DNA of 51,129 bases from a virus (taxonomy: Duplodnaviria > Caudoviricetes). Every line of letters starts with the position of its first letter. The stretch's first letter is position 1. The notes under the pieces were generated by a model. That model was not told where the DNA came from, did no database searches, and saw only the letters and a program-made list of their open reading frames with translations. Both the position numbers and the translations under genes were made by a program. Below are positions 16,573 to 51,129 of this stretch, piece by piece. Location of the stretch: positions 1 to 51,129 of the IMG/VR virus record IMGVR_UViG_3300020045_014710, one strand, 5' to 3'.

Positions 16573-17868
16573 ATGGCTACTTTAAAATATTCTATTGTAG
16601 GTAAAAAATCTCCTTCTGAGATCAGAATCCGTTACATAAACGGAAGGCTTACCGATACTGCTACAGGTATAAATATCTTTATTGATCCTAAGTATTGGGA
16701 TCAGGAAAACCAACGTATAAGAAACGTTATTGCGGTACCGAATAGAGATAAAATGAATTCTAAATTATCCGAATTAAAGATTCATGTTTTTAATGCAGCT
16801 AATGACGATTTTATGAACGGTGAAATTTTAAACAAAATTTGGCTTGAAAAAAGTGTAGCTAAATTTTTTAATCGTCCCTCTAATGAACTTAAAAAAGCGC
16901 CAGAATACCATAAAATTTATTTGACTGATTTTGCTGAATGGTGGTTTAAAGAAAAAGCGCCAAAATTTAAAGTTAGTGCCGATCAGTATATGGATAGTAC
17001 CACTATTGGACATTATAAAATTTTAAATTCCCAGATTCAAGAATTTGAAGGTAAGGATAAGATAAAATTCAGTTCTATAGATGATGTTTTATTAGATAAA
17101 TTTTCAGAATTTCTTACTGAAAAAGAATATGCCGAGAAAACAACCAAACGAATGTTGGGACGATTTAAATTCTTTTGTTTAAGAGCCGAAGCCGAAAATA
17201 TAGTAATTAATCAATCTTATAAAAACAGAATTTTTGTAGCAAAATCTAAAGAAGATTATAAAGAACCTTACTTTGATGAAGTAGAAATAAATAAAATTTA
17301 CAACCATGATTTTTCTGATAACACAACGCTGGATAATGTAAGAGACAATTTGATTATTGGATTATGGACCGGTTTAAGAATTTCTGATTTTTTATCAAAA
17401 CTTAAATTAGATAATTTTCATGATGATTTTATTGAAATTCAAACGGAGAAAACAAAGACTTGGGTGTCAATTCCGGTGCATTGGATGATACATGATATTT
17501 TGAAGAAAAGAAACGGTGCGCTTCCTGAAAAAATAAGTGATCAAAAATTCAATAAGCACATAAAAACGATAGCTGCAATTTTGAAATTTGATACCCAGAT
17601 GATAGGTGGTATTTCAAAGGTTGATCCAAAGACTAAAATTAAAAGAAAAGTAGTAAGTTTATACCCAAAACACAAATTGATTACCAGCCATATTTGCCGT
17701 AGAAGTTTTGCTACAAATATATATGGGACTGTAAGCAATAGTACATTAATGGCGATTTGTGGATGGAAGAGTGAAGAACAAATGCTGGACTATATCAAGA
17801 AAACAAATAGGGAACACGCTGAGAGCTTGAAAAAAGTTTGGGATATAAATTATAATAAAGTGAATTAA
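16573..17868 (+). CDS. int: Phage integrase (tyrosine recombinase, Bacteroidota type)
   Basis: Arm-binding N-terminus; TGLRISD, KT, SHICRRSFATN and catalytic Y in DYIK. Confidence 0.93.
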   Translation: MATLKYSIVGKKSPSEIRIRYINGRLTDTATGINIFIDPKYWDQENQRIRNVIAVPNRDKMNSKLSELKIHVFNAANDDFMNGEILNKIWLEKSVAKFFNRPSNELKKAPEYHKIYLTDFAEWWFKEKAPKFKVSADQYMDSTTIGHYKILNSQIQEFEGKDKIKFSSIDDVLLDKFSEFLTEKEYAEKTTKRMLGRFKFFCLRAEAENIVINQSYKNRIFVAKSKEDYKEPYFDEVEINKIYNHDFSDNTTLDNVRDNLIIGLWTGLRISDFLSKLKLDNFHDDFIEIQTEKTKTWVSIPVHWMIHDILKKRNGALPEKISDQKFNKHIKTIAAILKFDTQMIGGISKVDPKTKIKRKVVSLYPKHKLITSHICRRSFATNIYGTVSNSTLMAICGWKSEEQMLDYIKKTNREHAESLKKVWDINYNKVN

Positions 17869-20106: not shown

Positions 20107-21603
20107 CTAAAATAATTCTGGGTTTAATGTAAATGTTTTTAAAACAGTAGGTTTTATTTTTGGGCTGTATGCCGTTGGTCTTGGCTGTTGTGCTGCTTTT
20201 GCTTTTTGGCGTTCGGTTCGTTTGTCTGGTGCTTTTTCATAAAGCGGAAAACCTTTTATTTTTGCTACTCTTTGGTTGAATCTTCCCCAGATTTCTTTGT
20301 CTTTAAATTCAAAGTGAGCAGTACCAACTTTAAAACATTTTACTCTAAAATAAGCCCATTCAAACCATTGTCCGTACTCGTTTATCGGTTTTCTTCCAGT
20401 TGTGTAAAGTGTGTCAAATTCATCGTAATTATCGCCCGTGATATAACAAATTGCTTTTAACATATCTTCTAAGGTATTAGAAGAGTTCATTTGAATTTTA
20501 GTTTCTCCTTTATACCATCTTTGATCTTGATAACAAATACTTGGAACAATAAATTTTTGATTTAAAACATAATTTTCATTAGTTTTCCAACCTTTTAGGC
20601 CAAATCTGTTTTCGTGATGGTGTGAAGTAACTTTATCAAAAACTACCTCAATAGCTTTATCCATTCTCTGCTCGGTTGTTCCTATTACAATTTCAAGCAT
20701 TTTATAAATGTTACGCATCGTAAAAGGAATGTGTGTTTGGTCTTCTACAAATTTGTTTATATCGTCTCTCATACTTTGGGTAGAATACTTTTGCATATTC
20801 ATTTTATTAAAAATGAAGTTCCAACCGCTTTTTTGCATTTCCTTTTTAAAATCAGCTCTTTGTATTGGTTTTTCTTTATCAGTTACCTGAAAACCTATTT
20901 TTACAGAAAAATAACCGCTTGTTAAATTATTCATCCTGTTAGCCTCTTCTAGTTGCTTATCAAAAATTTTGATGCTTTCAACATATCGGTTAACTAAATC
21001 CCTAACAACATCATAACTCATTATTCCTTCGCCTTCTGGCTCTTCTTCATCATCTAAAAAGAAACCTTCAAACTCTGTAGAATACTTTGCACCGCTTTTT
21101 TGTAATATTACTAAACCAATTTCAACGCCTGTTGTTCTTTCGGAATTTTCAAAACAATTGCCTAAACTGGTATAATTCCCGTATAAATTAATATTGTTTT
21201 TTAGTTCTTTTCTGCTTTGGCTGTATGGGTTTACAATAGTTTGAGCGTTACAAAGTGAAATGATTTTACAACCTGCTGGCGCAATATTAAAAGCGTGTAA
21301 AATGTGTTTTTCGTCTCCGCTAAATGGTGGATTCATTACAATTAAATCAACGTGCGAAATGTCCGAACTCTCCAACTCTAAAAAATCAGCTTTTAAAAAT
21401 CTGGCTTTTTGGCTGGAAATGTGCGCCAAATCTTCGTTTAACTCACAAAAAAGAACTTCTTTCGCTCCGTTGTCATTCAAATAATCAATAATATTTCCTT
21501 TTCCTGCGCTAGGCTCTAGAATTACTTTATCAGTTATATTAATGCCTTCTAGCATTAAAAAAATAACATCGTTTGGCGTTGGATAAAAATCAGGATTAAA
21601 CAT
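20107..21603 (-). CDS. SAM-dependent amino-DNA methyltransferase with DUF4942-like C-terminus
   Basis: DFYPTP, ILEPSAGKG and VMNPPF motifs; C-terminal YFRVKCFK.GTAHFEF. Confidence 0.85.
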   Translation of the reverse strand: MFNPDFYPTPNDVIFLMLEGINITDKVILEPSAGKGNIIDYLNDNGAKEVLFCELNEDLAHISSQKARFLKADFLELESSDISHVDLIVMNPPFSGDEKHILHAFNIAPAGCKIISLCNAQTIVNPYSQSRKELKNNINLYGNYTSLGNCFENSERTTGVEIGLVILQKSGAKYSTEFEGFFLDDEEEPEGEGIMSYDVVRDLVNRYVESIKIFDKQLEEANRMNNLTSGYFSVKIGFQVTDKEKPIQRADFKKEMQKSGWNFIFNKMNMQKYSTQSMRDDINKFVEDQTHIPFTMRNIYKMLEIVIGTTEQRMDKAIEVVFDKVTSHHHENRFGLKGWKTNENYVLNQKFIVPSICYQDQRWYKGETKIQMNSSNTLEDMLKAICYITGDNYDEFDTLYTTGRKPINEYGQWFEWAYFRVKCFKVGTAHFEFKDKEIWGRFNQRVAKIKGFPLYEKAPDKRTERQKAKAAQQPRPTAYSPKIKPTVLKTFTLNPELF

Positions 21604-47162: not shown

Positions 47163-47200
47163 AATACCATTTTCGTTTGGTTTGACTTTTCCCAGTCATG

Positions 47201-47229
47201 AAGAAGCCTGCTGTTGAGCAGGCTTTTTC
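47201..47229. terminator. Bidirectional terminator between the capsid module and the integron-like operon
   Basis: AAGCCTGCT-GTTG-AGCAGGCTTTTT. Confidence 0.8.
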
Positions 47230-47232
47230 TAT

Positions 47233-47394
47233 TTAATAAACTGTTTTATCAGTGGTTTTAAAAATATGTTTGTGTAAGGATTTTAATATCGCTACTGCCG
47301 CTTCGTAGGTTGTTGCAGTTATTGTTTCTTGATCGAAGTCTTTTTGATTCGCTCCGTTGTAATAATACCAGTATTCTATTGTGAATTGTTGCAT
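47233..47394 (-). CDS. Small hypothetical protein (53 aa, not in track)
   Basis: MQQFTIEYWYYYNG...DKTVY*; abuts the upstream stop. Confidence 0.6.
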   Translation of the reverse strand: MQQFTIEYWYYYNGANQKDFDQETITATTYEAAVAILKSLHKHIFKTTDKTVY

Positions 47395-47922
47395 CTATTG
47401 TAGCTGTCTTAAAAATTCACCTTTTTTAATTTTGTTAGCCATATCACGCACTCTGATTAATTTCTTATAATCTTCTCTAGAAAGTTCTGGAGCTTCTTTA
47501 CCTGGACGATCTACTTCCAGATCATTAGCCTGAATAAATGCCGAACTAAAAAAATCTAATTCCTCATTGAACAAACGTTGATAAAAATCATTTTTGGCTT
47601 CAATTTCAATGTAATTTGAAACTGAACAAGAAATCATATAGTTCCCATTTAAACCATTTTGTTTTTGCATCTTATTAGGAAATGGACCATATACTTTTAT
47701 TTCATAGTTTACTTTTTTTACAATTTGGTACCATAATTTCCAATCATTTTCTGAAATAGTAAAAAAATAATCCTCTTGTTTTTCTCCTTCAATTTCTTCA
47801 ATAGTCAAATTATGTTTTTTTAGTAAATCAGTAAGCATTTTTTCAGCGTTGATTTTCTCTCCACCAATTCCTTTGTCAGAGAGTGCTTTTAATTTTTTGG
47901 CTAATTCTATATGTTTACTCAT
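47395..47922 (-). CDS. DUF2786-like protein
   Basis: KKLKALS..G.GGEK.NA..ML..LLKKHNL N-terminus. Confidence 0.65.
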   Translation of the reverse strand: MSKHIELAKKLKALSDKGIGGEKINAEKMLTDLLKKHNLTIEEIEGEKQEDYFFTISENDWKLWYQIVKKVNYEIKVYGPFPNKMQKQNGLNGNYMISCSVSNYIEIEAKNDFYQRLFNEELDFFSSAFIQANDLEVDRPGKEAPELSREDYKKLIRVRDMANKIKKGEFLRQLQ

Positions 47923-47925
47923 GGG

Positions 47926-48759
47926 TTACATTTTAATATTATTTAAAGGAGATTTTATTTTACTTATTAAGCTATCCGAAGTATGAACATAAACCATCGT
48001 AGTTGATACTTTTTTATGTCCCGCTAATTTTTGTACTAAATTAATATCTGTCCCGTTTTCAACCATGTGAGTAAAGCAGTTATGACGCATTTGATGTGTC
48101 CACACTCTTTTTTTTACTCCTGCTTTATTACCTAATTGTTTTATTACTTGCCCTACACTTCCCTTGCTGTATTTATCTGAGAATTGTCCAGACAAAATAT
48201 AATCTTTAGTTTTATAACAATTCCAGTATTTTTCTAAAAGAGGAATTAAAGAAGGGTCTAACATAACCTGTCTGTCTCTTTTTCCTTTTCCTTGTATTAC
48301 ATTTATGATGTTCCTGCTCCGGTCTATATTTTGCCATCTTAAATTTATTAACTCCGTAACGCGCAATCCACAAGAATATAATAAAGCCAAAATAGTTTTG
48401 TGTTTTAAATTTTCGCATACGTCAAACATTTTTTGCACTTCATCTTGACTTAAAACGATTGGCAATTTTTGTTCTGATCTGGGATATTCAATGTGTTTAA
48501 ATTTTAACGGTTGTTTTCCAGTGAATTTATAAAACAACTTAACGGCAGAAATTCTATGCTTTCTACCATTAATTGAATTGGCTAATAGCAGCCATTCTTT
48601 AATTTGTTTTTCTGAAATCTCCGAAGGTTTAGTAGCTACTTTATTAAAGTGTTCCAAAAAACATTTCACCTGACTACAATAATTCAAAATAGTATTTTCA
48701 GCGTAGTTTTTTAGCTTTAAATCTTCGGAATACAATTCCACATACTTTCCGATGTTCAT
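47926..48759 (-). CDS. IntI-like tyrosine recombinase (277 aa) lacking the IntI-specific insertion
   Basis: KLPIVLSQDEV, LLYSCGLRVTE, GKGKRDRQVML, HQMRH, LAGH...TTMVY; all catalytic residues R-K-H-R-H-Y present. Confidence 0.9.
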   Translation of the reverse strand: MNIGKYVELYSEDLKLKNYAENTILNYCSQVKCFLEHFNKVATKPSEISEKQIKEWLLLANSINGRKHRISAVKLFYKFTGKQPLKFKHIEYPRSEQKLPIVLSQDEVQKMFDVCENLKHKTILALLYSCGLRVTELINLRWQNIDRSRNIINVIQGKGKRDRQVMLDPSLIPLLEKYWNCYKTKDYILSGQFSDKYSKGSVGQVIKQLGNKAGVKKRVWTHQMRHNCFTHMVENGTDINLVQKLAGHKKVSTTMVYVHTSDSLISKIKSPLNNIKM

Positions 48760-48789: not shown

Positions 48790-48821
48790 CAGATTATGTT
48801 TACATATAGTAGTTAGCAGGC
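48790..48821 (+). mobile_element. attI-like site (crossover G48812/TT)
   Basis: First GTT box (GTTAGCAGGC) has no upstream hairpin and lies ~50 bp from the integrase start. Confidence 0.7.
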
Positions 48822-48825
48822 ATTG

Positions 48826-49164
48826 CTACATTATGTATTTCAAATCAAATATCTCCCCAACTTGGTTTTTATATTTGAAGTCAAATTCATTTGATATTGA
48901 ATTTCTTAAACGGCTATTTAAGAATACATTTCCAGAACTAATGCAGGATTTTAAATCTTCAATTTTAGCCATTCCGAAATCGTGACTATCACCGTGTAAT
49001 GTGAATACTGAATTATCACGGTCTAATATCCACCATCCACCTCCTTTTACTTTTTCAATATCGGTAGCTAATTGCTTGTGATAAGTACATTTTGCAATAA
49101 TTAGAACATCGCCTAATTCATTGTTTGTTTCAATTATAAATTTTGGGAATACATCCATTTTCAA
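48826..49164 (-). CDS. Cassette 1 hypothetical protein
   Basis: HKQLA...GGGWW...LHGDSHDFG; stop 4 bp from the GTT box. Confidence 0.75.
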   Translation of the reverse strand: MKMDVFPKFIIETNNELGDVLIIAKCTYHKQLATDIEKVKGGGWWILDRDNSVFTLHGDSHDFGMAKIEDLKSCISSGNVFLNSRLRNSISNEFDFKYKNQVGEIFDLKYIM

Positions 49165-49191
49165 GATATTTATTAGTTAACAATCCACAAC

Positions 49192-49288
49192 GCCTGCTAA
49201 CATATGCTACAAGCTATATGCAGACGTTTTGTGCTTTGATTCAACTTTTATTTTGGCATACAGCGTGTAGCATCAGCCGTTGTAGTGC
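49192..49288 (+). repeat. attC-like site 1
   Basis: ...AAC-AT-ATGCTACAAGCTATATGC...GCATACAGCGTGTAGCAT-CAGCC-GTT. Confidence 0.85.
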
Positions 49289-49290
49289 AT

Positions 49291-49518
49291 TTAAGAAAGA
49301 ACCTCTGCACCAATTAGTTCATACTGTTCAAAATCACCATCGTGGTTATATCCGCCCGAAGAAAGCATCCTTTTCAATTCATCATAGTCAGTTGTAGTTT
49401 TCATCTGCTCAAAATACTGTCCGTACCTTCGGGCTTTGTATTTGAGAATAAAACGCACTACAACATTAGCTATACGTAATGCCTTTTCCTTTTCTATTTG
49501 CTCATAAATTTCATCCAT
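49291..49518 (-). CDS. Cassette 2 hypothetical protein (starts inside the attC2 loop)
   Basis: 75 aa; N-terminal KALRIANVVVR is encoded by the attC arm. Confidence 0.7.
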   Translation of the reverse strand: MDEIYEQIEKEKALRIANVVVRFILKYKARRYGQYFEQMKTTTDYDELKRMLSSGGYNHDGDFEQYELIGAEVLS

Positions 49519-49590
49519 TGTTATTGCTGTTTAATTATGTTGTTCGTAGTTTCAAAAAGGCACTACGCATAGCCTTGTACGTTACAAGAC
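49455..49590 (+). repeat. attC-like site 2
   Basis: ...AAC-ATTA-GCTATACGTAATGCCTTTT...AAAAGGCACTACGCATAGC-CTTGTAC-GTT. Confidence 0.85.
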
Positions 49591-49591
49591 A

Positions 49592-49912
49592 TTACAAATC
49601 ACGCACACCTACAACATTTCCGTTAATAGGAGTTCCATCTTCATAAAGTCCTTCGTGTTCAATTTCAGCAATCATTTGCATTGGTTTATTTCCTTTAAAA
49701 TAATCCCATAAAGCATCAAATCTGTCTTGAGTTAATCCCACTTTGGGCCAGAAGATATTTTGGTTATTTAATGGCTCGCAAGTCATTGATTTTTTTCTGC
49801 CTAATCCAGTAAGTTTAAAATCTGTTTTCACAAGAGTAACGTCTTGTAACATAGGTTTTGTGCTATTGCCTGATTGGTCATTAATCGAAACATTGTTTTT
49901 TTCTTGATTCAT
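49592..49912 (-). CDS. Cassette 3 hypothetical protein (starts inside the attC3 loop)
   Basis: 106 aa; N-terminal GNSTKPMLQDV is encoded by the attC arm. Confidence 0.7.
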   Translation of the reverse strand: MNQEKNNVSINDQSGNSTKPMLQDVTLVKTDFKLTGLGRKKSMTCEPLNNQNIFWPKVGLTQDRFDALWDYFKGNKPMQMIAEIEHEGLYEDGTPINGNVVGVRDL

Positions 49913-49979
49913 TTGTTTTTAATTTAGAGTTTAGGTGTGTTTTAAAGGCAACATCACAAAGCCTCCGCCGTTACTGGCT
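49841..49979 (+). repeat. attC-like site 3
   Basis: ...AAC-AT-AGGTTTTGTGCTATTGCCT...AGGCAACATCACAAAGCCT-CCGCC-GTT. Confidence 0.85.
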
Positions 49980-49985
49980 ATACTA

Positions 49986-50291
49986 CTATTTCGGTTTTTC
50001 ATCAACTTTCATAGCAGTAATTACATTATTTAACGCTACCGCCATTTGTTCGTATTGTTGCAATTCTGATAAAGCTAATTGTAGATTTGCAATAGTTTGA
50101 TTTAATCCTGCTGTACTTAAAATTAATCTTGTTTCGTCTAAAGCTCTTTTTTGTAGAATTTGGCTTTTCGCTCCAAACGAATATTCCGGTTTATAAGTCA
50201 ATAAGACTATTTCTATTAAAGGAGTTAATTCTGTTTTTCCGTTTTCTACCGTAAAACTTATATTTGTTCTAACTGATGCTAATTGTTTCAT
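49986..50291 (-). CDS. Cassette 4 hypothetical protein
   Basis: 101 aa ORF filling the cassette. Confidence 0.75.
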   Translation of the reverse strand: MKQLASVRTNISFTVENGKTELTPLIEIVLLTYKPEYSFGAKSQILQKRALDETRLILSTAGLNQTIANLQLALSELQQYEQMAVALNNVITAMKVDEKPK

Positions 50292-50334
50292 TTATTTAGT
50301 TTTTATAATTAATATTTGTTTTCTCTACCCGTAC

Positions 50335-50473
50335 AGCCAGTAACAGCGTGTTGTTTTCAGGCTTGGATTAGTGATTAGGTTGTTATTGTTTTTTATTTGT
50401 TACCATTTTGTTGACTCCAACAATTTGGTCTTATCTGTCACGCCCGAAAAGCAACACGCAAGCGTTAGTGGCA
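50335..50473 (+). repeat. attC-like site 4
   Basis: ...AAC-A-GCGTGTTGTTTTCAGGC...GCCCGAAAAGCAACACGC-AAGC-GTT. Confidence 0.85.
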
Positions 50474-50478
50474 ACCGC

Positions 50479-50856
50479 CTAATATATCGGTAAATCAGTT
50501 GTTGAAATAATTTTATAGTGAGTTGCGTTTTTCATTATAAATTCAATACTACCATCTAAAAGGAATTTACCTAAAATCAGACCTTCTTTTTTATCCATCC
50601 ACCAACAGTTGCAATCGAATTGAGGTAAATCATTTTCACGATAAATTTTAACCCATCCATTATTATTATCAATTCCTTTTAATGATTTTGGTCTTGACAA
50701 GTGTCCGTTAAATTCAATTTCTGAAACATCAAAAAAAGGAATAAGACTAATTTTTTTATTTTTAACACAATCAACAAATCCGTTTTCGTTGATATAACCT
50801 TTCAACGCATCATAACTTTTTCCGTATGCTTTTTGAATAACTTCTTGCTTTTCCAT
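50479..50856 (-). CDS. Cassette 5 hypothetical phage protein
   Basis: KQEVIQKAYG...RPKSLKGIDNNNGWVKI..E.DLP...THY, typical of Flavobacteria phage hypotheticals. Confidence 0.78.
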   Translation of the reverse strand: MEKQEVIQKAYGKSYDALKGYINENGFVDCVKNKKISLIPFFDVSEIEFNGHLSRPKSLKGIDNNNGWVKIYRENDLPQFDCNCWWMDKKEGLILGKFLLDGSIEFIMKNATHYKIISTTDLPIY

Positions 50857-50878
50857 AATTAATATGTTTTACGTGGTA

Positions 50879-51019
50879 TGCCACTAACACTCGTTTTGTG
50901 CTATTACGGCAATTTTAGTTAATATTAAATTTTGTTGTTACGTTCATGTTTTTCGTTAACCGAAAAACCTCGTTTCGCTTAGTGCCGTAACATCACAAAG
51001 CGAGGTAACGTTATAGCAC
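50879..51019 (+). repeat. attC-like site 5
   Basis: ...AAC-A-CTCGTTTTGTGCTATTACGGCA...TGCCGTAACATCACAAAGCGAG-GTAAC-GTT. Confidence 0.85.
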
Positions 51020-51044
51020 ATTGCTACATTTACGTTTTTATAAG

Positions 51045-51128
51045 TTAATTTTTCAACTCTATTTCTGGTTTTTTATTACCTAAGTAATTACATTTAAGAT
51101 ATTTTAATTCTAACGCTTTACCTTTTCT
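51045..51128 (-). CDS. Cassette 6 ORF, 3' end only
   Basis: Open frame ...RKGKALELKYLKCNYLGNKKPEIELKN* entering from the right edge. Confidence 0.45.
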   Translation of the reverse strand, partial: RKGKALELKYLKCNYLGNKKPEIELKN

Positions 51129-51129
51129 T

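Follow-up and report, generated by a model that had tools for sequence, protein, structure and literature searches.

At the right end of the phage genome considered here, a row of small genes separated by hairpin-forming DNA precedes the gene of a tyrosine recombinase, and two of the reading frames begin inside the hairpins. This raises the question of whether a recombination site can provide a start codon and an N-terminus to the gene attached to it, and of what kind of DNA lies behind such a start. The window, i.e. the whole stretch of DNA that was analysed, comprises an entire virus record of 51,129 bases and carries terminase, portal and virion genes (PHROGs). A Bacteroidota host is deduced from the relatives of the sites in cultured Flavobacterium phages and from the relatives of the recombinase in Flavobacterium assemblies; the host is likely a Flavobacterium-type bacterium. 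Five small genes precede the recombinase of 277 residues, and all of them are encoded on the minus strand. Each array gene lies inside a segment with a perfect 10-nt inverted repeat at its ends, and the sequence of this repeat is unique to each segment. Hairpin-forming sites of 80–124 nt separate the segments; the first core stands alone, without an adjoining hairpin. The array runs on past the contig end, beyond attC5. Its features are:

47926–48759, minus strand: tyrosine recombinase, 277 residues; R133, K158, H222, R225, H248 and Y257; PF00589 and PF13495
48760–48821: attI-like site; first core (48812–48821) and conserved spacer up to the ATG of the recombinase
48812–49201, 49279–49464, 49581–49850, 49970–50344 and 50464–50888: the five inverted-repeat segments
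48826–49158, minus strand: cassette 1 gene; start in the body, at +43 from the core
49199–49281: attC1, short type with 80 nt between the cores; gene without a fused leader
49291–49518, minus strand: cassette 2 gene, 75 residues; residues 1–18 from attC2 loop and arm, V19–V21 from the core
49462–49583: attC2; core 49462–49464, arms 49469–49487 and 49555–49573, loop 49488–49554, core 49581–49583
49592–49912, minus strand: cassette 3 gene, 106 residues; residues 1–20 from attC3 loop and arm, body from residue 28
49848–49972: attC3; core 49848–49850, arms 49853–49871 and 49946–49964, loop 49872–49945, core 49970–49972
49986–50291, minus strand: cassette 4 gene; start in the body (+53)
50342–50466: attC4, long type; the loop ATG at 50406 opens a frame of only 7 codons
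50479–50856, minus strand: cassette 5 gene (phrog_27445); start in the body (+32)
50886–51012: attC5, long type; the frame from the loop ATG at 50947 stops after 10 codons

A sixth cassette (51010–51129) is cut by the contig end and matches the loci L041/L059 at 97%; its 3' end resembles that of cassette 1 (48812–48832) over about 20 nt. No Rfam family was found anywhere in the window.

Judged from its sequence, the recombinase is likely the integrase of these cassettes. Its catalytic residues are invariant across 16 homologues. The insertion specific for IntI is missing (27 residues versus 70 in VchIntI4), and the score for TIGR02249 is 163 bits at a cut-off of 265. An attI-like motif is located upstream of the recombinase in most of 44 sequences (the window and 43 loci), and the cassette end joined to it at AAC varies. 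A constant spacer next to a variable cassette end would be the pattern expected of attI. Three Flavobacterium assemblies contain close relatives of this phage-type recombinase (L049, L050, L051), each with one stop within the match; L049 and L050 have sites of phage polarity upstream of the recombinase.

In several respects the system is like an integron. A tyrosine recombinase with intact catalytic residues is encoded next to the array and, by sequence, next to an attI-like site; the cassettes are arranged head to tail with complementary GTT/AAC cores and folded sites of about 120 nt or 65–90 nt; near-identical sites occur on unrelated genes, and cassettes change neighbours as units. In other respects it differs. 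The activity of the phage recombinase on folded sites is putative, as it lacks the IntI-specific insertion. The GTTRRRY consensus fits none of the six window cores. The genes face the integrase, so that attC lies 5' of the gene and often holds its start codon, and the arms pair without gaps, while on one side 2–4 additional bases separate the core from the stem. The two strands of the sites differ by about 1 kcal in folding, the coding strand being the better one in 31 of 39, 36 of 49 and 27 of 38 cases.

The association of each site with a gene follows from cassettes that occur in other surroundings. In one locus (L055), cassette 3 is found at 95.7% identity over 49579–49973, which is exactly attC3 plus body, and has other neighbours; L059 contains it among yet other neighbours. 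Furthermore, the 5' attC is retained (94–100%) in each of 12 pairs whose bodies are alike and whose contexts differ. Two of these pairs reflect truncated loci and the other 10 represent roughly three independent sets; the 108 pairs with a common context were excluded. The attC thus belongs to the gene that lies downstream of it on the coding strand. Contigs of four public runs break at or beside the cores (48816, 49281, 49579, 50467, 51009), which is a weak indication of movement. One locus (L070) contains a cassette in three identical copies within a single array. Another locus (L060) was rejected as a recaptured cassette because no matching 3' core was found; its upstream flank of only 35 nt is uninformative with respect to the left arm.

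The polarity is not peculiar to the window. A set of 119 loci with the 5' end of the recombinase (some contigs are duplicated and a few are bacterial) was compiled, 85 of which yielded 245 cassettes with 149 distinct bodies. In 143 of these 149 cassettes, the longest frame points toward the recombinase, so that attC is located at the 5' end of each gene. Of 61 genomes of the genus of L050 (Flavobacterium urumqiense), 35 contain a related recombinase, and 27 chromosomal regions around related recombinases contain the same attC family according to a profile of the phage sites (E down to 3e-20). These chromosomal sites are mostly 113–124 nt long, have the same core offset and show cassette ends that match in 8–10 of 10 positions. 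In contrast to the phage arrays, they lie downstream of a longer recombinase, and the gene is on the other strand and ends at attC in 19 of 26 cassettes; the remaining seven are four copies of one 404-bp cassette that looks geneless and three with short or ambiguous frames. The phage arrays are therefore inverted relative to the host type, and the A-rich strand of the loop comes to lie in front of each gene. One chromosomal array (L154, 11600–19200) has 12 sites, and four 404-bp cassettes in it are without a clear gene.

These findings bear on whether the hairpins are recombinase substrates at all. They could be repeats for translation control or homologous recombination, with the recombinase acting elsewhere. 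This would agree with the missing IntI insertion and the deviating cores, and no circle joint was found in the contigs of 4 of 23 public runs; moreover, cultured phages contain such sites, yet no close relative of the recombinase was found in that collection. However, the cassette-specific 10-nt inverted ends and the units that change neighbours exactly at the cores are difficult to reconcile with such a role, and the attI-like site adjoins the recombinase in phages just as arrays adjoin its homologues in chromosomes. We consider it highly improbable that the hairpins are not substrates, and continue with integron-like cassettes.

In the window, the arms of attC2 pair in 17 of 19 positions and those of attC3 in 16 of 19. 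The attC2 loop (67 nt) holds the ATG at 49518–49516 and the attC3 loop (74 nt) the ATG at 49912–49910, which are situated 54 and 62 nt before the core. The frame of cassette 2, MDEIYEQIEKEKALRIANVVVR... (75 residues), and that of cassette 3, MNQEKNNVSINDQSGNSTKPMLQDV... (106 residues), are free of stops through the gene-proximal arm and the core. The sequence-only reading had placed both ATGs inside attC loops and had taken arm and AAC box as part of the coding sequence; arm pairing and reading frames confirm the positions and the peptides. Folding compared to shuffled sequences is strong for attC2 (z −3.8) and modest for attC3 (z −1.9), and the site profile matches them with E values of 1e-3 and 5e-16, respectively, both sites being members of its training set. 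Five consecutive pairs of 10-nt inverted ends, the profile matches and the movement of cassette 3 as a unit identify attC2 and attC3 as real sites on the level of sequence.

The loops had also been described as A-rich on the coding strand, in the manner of Bacteroidota initiation regions. The composition is as claimed, with 52% A in the attC2 loop and 53% in the attC3 loop versus 40% on the array strand; what it does not do is single out these two. The other three loops of the window are A-rich as well (63%, 54% and 46%), and the frames of their ATGs stop before or just after the core. A-richness alone is therefore no mark of a start.

Alternative starts are GTG 49458 and ATG 49404 for cassette 2, and ATG 49852, GTG 49831 and ATG 49786 for cassette 3. 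The start-context score is 4.1 and 4.7 for the two loop ATGs and −3.0 and −6.9 for the GTGs; cassette 3 has a C at −3 and thus no A at this position. The two loop ATGs have higher unpaired values in predicted mRNA folds (0.65 and 0.74) than the starts in arm or core (0.27–0.52), and loop ATGs are exposed where the core region is paired (0.69 versus 0.26). This predicted difference may be the reason why only long loops host starts.

In order to assess how frequent such starts are, the 119 of the 149 bodies with one main gene were kept and 30 were dropped. Among the 88 cassettes with a long attC, the main frame is open to a loop ATG in 39 and starts at or after the core in 49. The loop ATGs of the 39 are at positions −39 to −93, mostly −42 to −66. 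Cassettes with a short attC have no loop start (0 of 31). A loop ATG that is open to the core was found in 46 of the 88 long sites, and 39 of these 46 are in the frame of the gene; a random frame would give at most 16 fusions and 500 shuffles of the loops gave 5.5 ± 2.2 on average with a maximum of 14, although P-values overstate independence as the cassettes share attC lineages. The starts in loop and body complement each other: an in-frame ATG in the body (+1 to +75) is present in 12 of the 39 loop-start cassettes versus 48 of the 49 others. If GTG and TTG are counted as well, 26 of the 39 have a possible start in this range and 13 have none.

Loop ATGs reach a median start-context score of 4.1; body starts have a median of 2.7 and internal Met codons one of −3.7. 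The matrix was trained on 46 starts of the window, and the score largely reflects A content. Loop ATGs carry an A at −3, −6, −12 and −13 in 67–85% of cases, and an A at those upstream positions promotes initiation in F. johnsoniae, as reported in the accessible part of PMC6847099. The A fraction of the loop is 0.53 for loop-start and 0.47 for body-start cassettes. The loops of the chromosomal sites are less A-rich (0.36); an open leader was found in 6 of 38 and a well-placed, well-scoring one in 0 of 38, compared to 36 of 88 in the phage-type set.

Promoters in the loops were considered as another function and found no support. The Bacteroidota −7 motif was found on the coding strand in one of the 39 attC with a loop start, and its occurrence in the window is at chance level (89 versus 86.7). 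A scan for sigma-70 promoters stayed below chance.

Of the 39 loop-start proteins, 37 were scanned against Pfam; six were matched and 31 were not. Three cytosine methylases have a Pfam domain that begins at residue 21–25; one of them has no further in-frame ATG, and in the other two the next one is at residues 63 and 75. In two further proteins, the domain starts at or after an internal Met, and the last match is C-terminal only. Methylases and a PAPS reductase make up the matched bodies. Among the cassette cargo, DNA methyltransferases are found repeatedly (L064, L081, L012, L011, L010, L284), and in several of these cassettes the attC leader is joined directly to the first motif. The cultured phages 11b and filifjonk9-1 share the layout, which also occurs on methyltransferase genes there. 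Annotated genes start inside one of three long profile matches in the 11b region and inside four of six full-length ones in the filifjonk9-1 region, and two filifjonk genes have one common leader and unrelated bodies.

The sequence-only reading had further predicted that recurrent N-terminal motifs in phage proteins are tied to hairpins. For the KP(M/L)L..V motif this proved correct. The KP(M/L)L arm pattern, which is biased toward one arm family, gave 116 viral matches, 107 of them usable. The partner arm is present in 95 of the 107 sites (background 2 of 107), and 79 of the 95 are fused to a gene. Seven of the 12 sites without partner arm still bear a fused leader. For the AL.IA.V-type pattern, no viral contig was matched, and viral scans with cassette 2, its alignment and its arm pattern gave no match. 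The ATG of the 107 KP-arm sites is found at −62 in 49 cases, at −59 in 46, at −61 in five and never at −60, whereas its distance to the left arm is variable, with all values between 50 and 57 represented. For the leader codons, pN/pS is 1.15 (38 pairs). Thus, purifying selection on the amino acids of the leader was not found by pN/pS, and they look unconstrained at this level.

The proteins of cassettes 2 and 3 have no match in Pfam, NCBIfam or PHROGs. The conserved body of cassette 2 begins at R22. In a structure model the leader is a helix (residues 2–17) and a strand follows from residue 21; a fold search gave nothing clear and no usable Atlas match. All 11 close homologues are full length and contain the leader. 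A deeper search, however, yielded three distant leaderless homologues, which start just before the invariant R22-F23 and thus next to GTG 49458, as well as one with a shortened leader and two with extensions of equal length (P0071, P0073). The latter may be attC-derived or ancestral, as P0070–P0076 were compared as proteins. In one locus (L061), the cassette 2 gene directly follows another gene and lacks the left arm, but leader and frame are intact and a nearly matching 3' box is present.

For cassette 3, 57 homologues were found. GTG 49831, the codon of V28, aligns with the Met position of the family, and 35 homologues start at most six residues from this Met, where starts are automatic gene calls that favour the longest frame. 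Seven have a KP-type leader, and the residues of these seven at the Met position are V, V, I, I, V, M and A; four were unparsed and 11 have other extensions. Members of the family occur behind another attC with their own ATG (L058); in L056 the leader is present but the left arm is not, and L057 shares the 3' box but lacks attC. In the structure model, the leader is predicted to be disordered (pLDDT <50 for residues 1–20) and the body likely adopts an OB fold, with weak fold matches to the OB domains of DNA ligases and to eIF5A (best E 1e-3). A domain search across the alignment gave weak single matches only.

Accordingly placed GTGs could mean that the real starts are in or after the core, and that the loop ATGs are by-products of a purine or A skew in the recombined strand. 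The two GTG positions, the A-richness of loops of all classes and the lack of conservation of the leader residues would be compatible with this. In contrast, a skew does not account for fusions far above the expectations from random frames and shuffles, for an ATG spacing that shifts in threes (−59/−62, with five at −61), or for the 13 loop-start cassettes without any ATG, GTG or TTG in +1 to +75. Nor does it agree with homologues that have an I or A at the Met position and with chromosomal sites of the same family that are without such leaders. Starts in or after the core are therefore unlikely to be the rule. That attC supplies start and N-terminal leader, the central claim of the sequence-only reading, is very likely in view of the frame statistics, the complementarity of body starts, the methylase domains, the spacing and the predicted mRNA folds.

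The same reading had gone further and proposed that the leader is given to whatever DNA is captured, as a route to gene birth. This part is not supported. The leaderless relatives of both window genes indicate that the bodies are older than the leaders or exist without them. A gene born de novo should be without body homologues outside its new context, and both window bodies have such homologues. Moreover, 49 of the 88 cassettes with a long attC use their own start, and attC normally stays with its own gene while arrays are shuffled. An attC that caps arbitrary DNA with a start codon and creates proteins from non-coding sequence might explain why the 86 fused leaders are distributed over 55 unrelated body families, of which 41 are singletons in the set, and why most loop-start proteins (31 of 37) are without Pfam match. 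The leaderless relatives of both window bodies and their confidently predicted folds argue against this; the Pfam-matched bodies are known enzymes, and no body of the set was traced to non-coding DNA. Capping of arbitrary DNA is thus very unlikely, and an N-terminus added to an existing gene is the reading retained here.

The occurrence of one leader on unrelated proteins follows a pattern of re-assortment at a defined point. Among 289 full-length sites, 168 pairs are at least 93% identical over the last 60 nt, and 158 of these are on unrelated bodies; without the loci from the pattern search, 17 unrelated pairs compare to one related pair. Between near-identical attC, identity is complete through GTTA and drops at the next base. 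Conversely, in 14 of 33 close body pairs the attC are less than 65% alike, mostly with the same 10-nt core. For example, the bodies of L084 and L086 are 97% identical and have unrelated in-frame leaders. The join at GTTA may have been made when the cassette was created or by exchange among cassettes; the bodies already carry matched ends. The idea of a right arm that was native coding sequence and was copied into the left arm was rejected, because arm families recur on unrelated bodies. In two of nine short leaders (L172 and L174), the attC leader stops in an ATGA overlap with the main start, which suggests translational coupling as a second mode.

The layout is real and recurrent, and we take it as a variant of integron-like cassettes in which a recombination site would re-head existing genes. 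We regard it as probable that the cassettes are swappable units in which the A-rich hairpin loop is the translation start and adds a leader to an older body. Ribosomes would load on the unpaired loop, with the help of the upstream adenines that Bacteroidota use in place of a Shine-Dalgarno sequence, and would then read through arm and core into the body. Translation from the loop is likely in this sense. The recombinase likely moves hairpin and body as a unit through exchange at the gene-distal core. In rarer cases, a hairpin would be joined to a different body just after GTTA, which would give one leader on unrelated proteins and one body with different leaders. Selection likely keeps ATG, spacing and frame, but not the leader residues. 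After that, the body could lose its own start by decay or truncation, and the leader could outlast the hairpin. A more far-reaching version, which we consider conceivable but somewhat doubtful, is that cassettes originate by repeated grafting of a start-bearing hairpin after GTTA onto genes or 5'-truncated pieces, that these grafts become expressed mobile cassettes, and that attC-derived N-termini persist in Bacteroidota phage proteomes after the hairpin has decayed.

To our knowledge, the origin of integron cassettes is still an open question, and a link of the phage arrays to it is plausible. In the arrays analysed here, the boundary of attC and body is located after GTTA with a precision of one or two bases. 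An attC-coded leader would tag the history of a cassette: it would record the site that each body acquired, the loss of native starts and the later departure of genes from the system. Recombination substrate, start signal and coding sequence would be united in a single stretch of DNA. This offers an explanation for recurrent N-terminal motifs in hypothetical phage proteins and matters for the annotation of starts. Direct tests are possible because cultured phages carry the layout.

Related observations have been made in other systems. Sedentary chromosomal integrons, which have homogeneous attC, carry similar sites on unrelated genes, and this has been linked to cassette genesis (PMC8352920, available part). 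In class 1 integrons, ORF-11, ORF-17 and ORF-18 in attI1 and short ORFs in attC are translated, according to the accessible part of PMC8876359. There, as here, the site carries a start, is translated across or up to the crossover and aids cassettes with a poor start. As far as the same part of that paper describes, most of those short ORFs terminate and are coupled to the following gene, and ORF-11/17/18 belong to attI, which is fixed; the phage cassettes have the start in their own mobile attC, in frame with the gene, where it would provide a permanent N-terminus. Clusters of attC (CALINs) have been found in virulent phages including Polaribacter phage P12002L, with DNA methyltransferases among the cargo (PMC9892861). 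The available text of that paper describes no small dedicated recombinase, inverted polarity or attC-coded leaders and does not mention 'start codon', 'Bacteroid' or 'Flavobacter'. It reports that P12002L_attC1 failed with IntI1; by eye, this site resembles those of the window. In the filifjonk phage group, methyltransferase content has been linked to plating efficiency; the accessible text of this paper (PMC7077304) does not mention integron, cassette or attC. A full-text search, with subscription papers and bioRxiv supplements outside its scope, returned no published description of starts inside attC loops or of this Bacteroidota system.

Some further genes lie outside the array. A second, longer tyrosine recombinase of 431 residues is encoded at 16573–17868 on the plus strand (phrog_216, E 4e-9); it is possibly the phage's own integrase and distinct from the cassette recombinase. 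A DNA methyltransferase-like gene with several PHROG matches is located at 20107–21603 on the minus strand. Two minus-strand genes (47233–47922, one of them phrog_421) are directly downstream of the cassette recombinase, and a hairpin at 47200–47229, which faces the capsid module, ends this gene pair.
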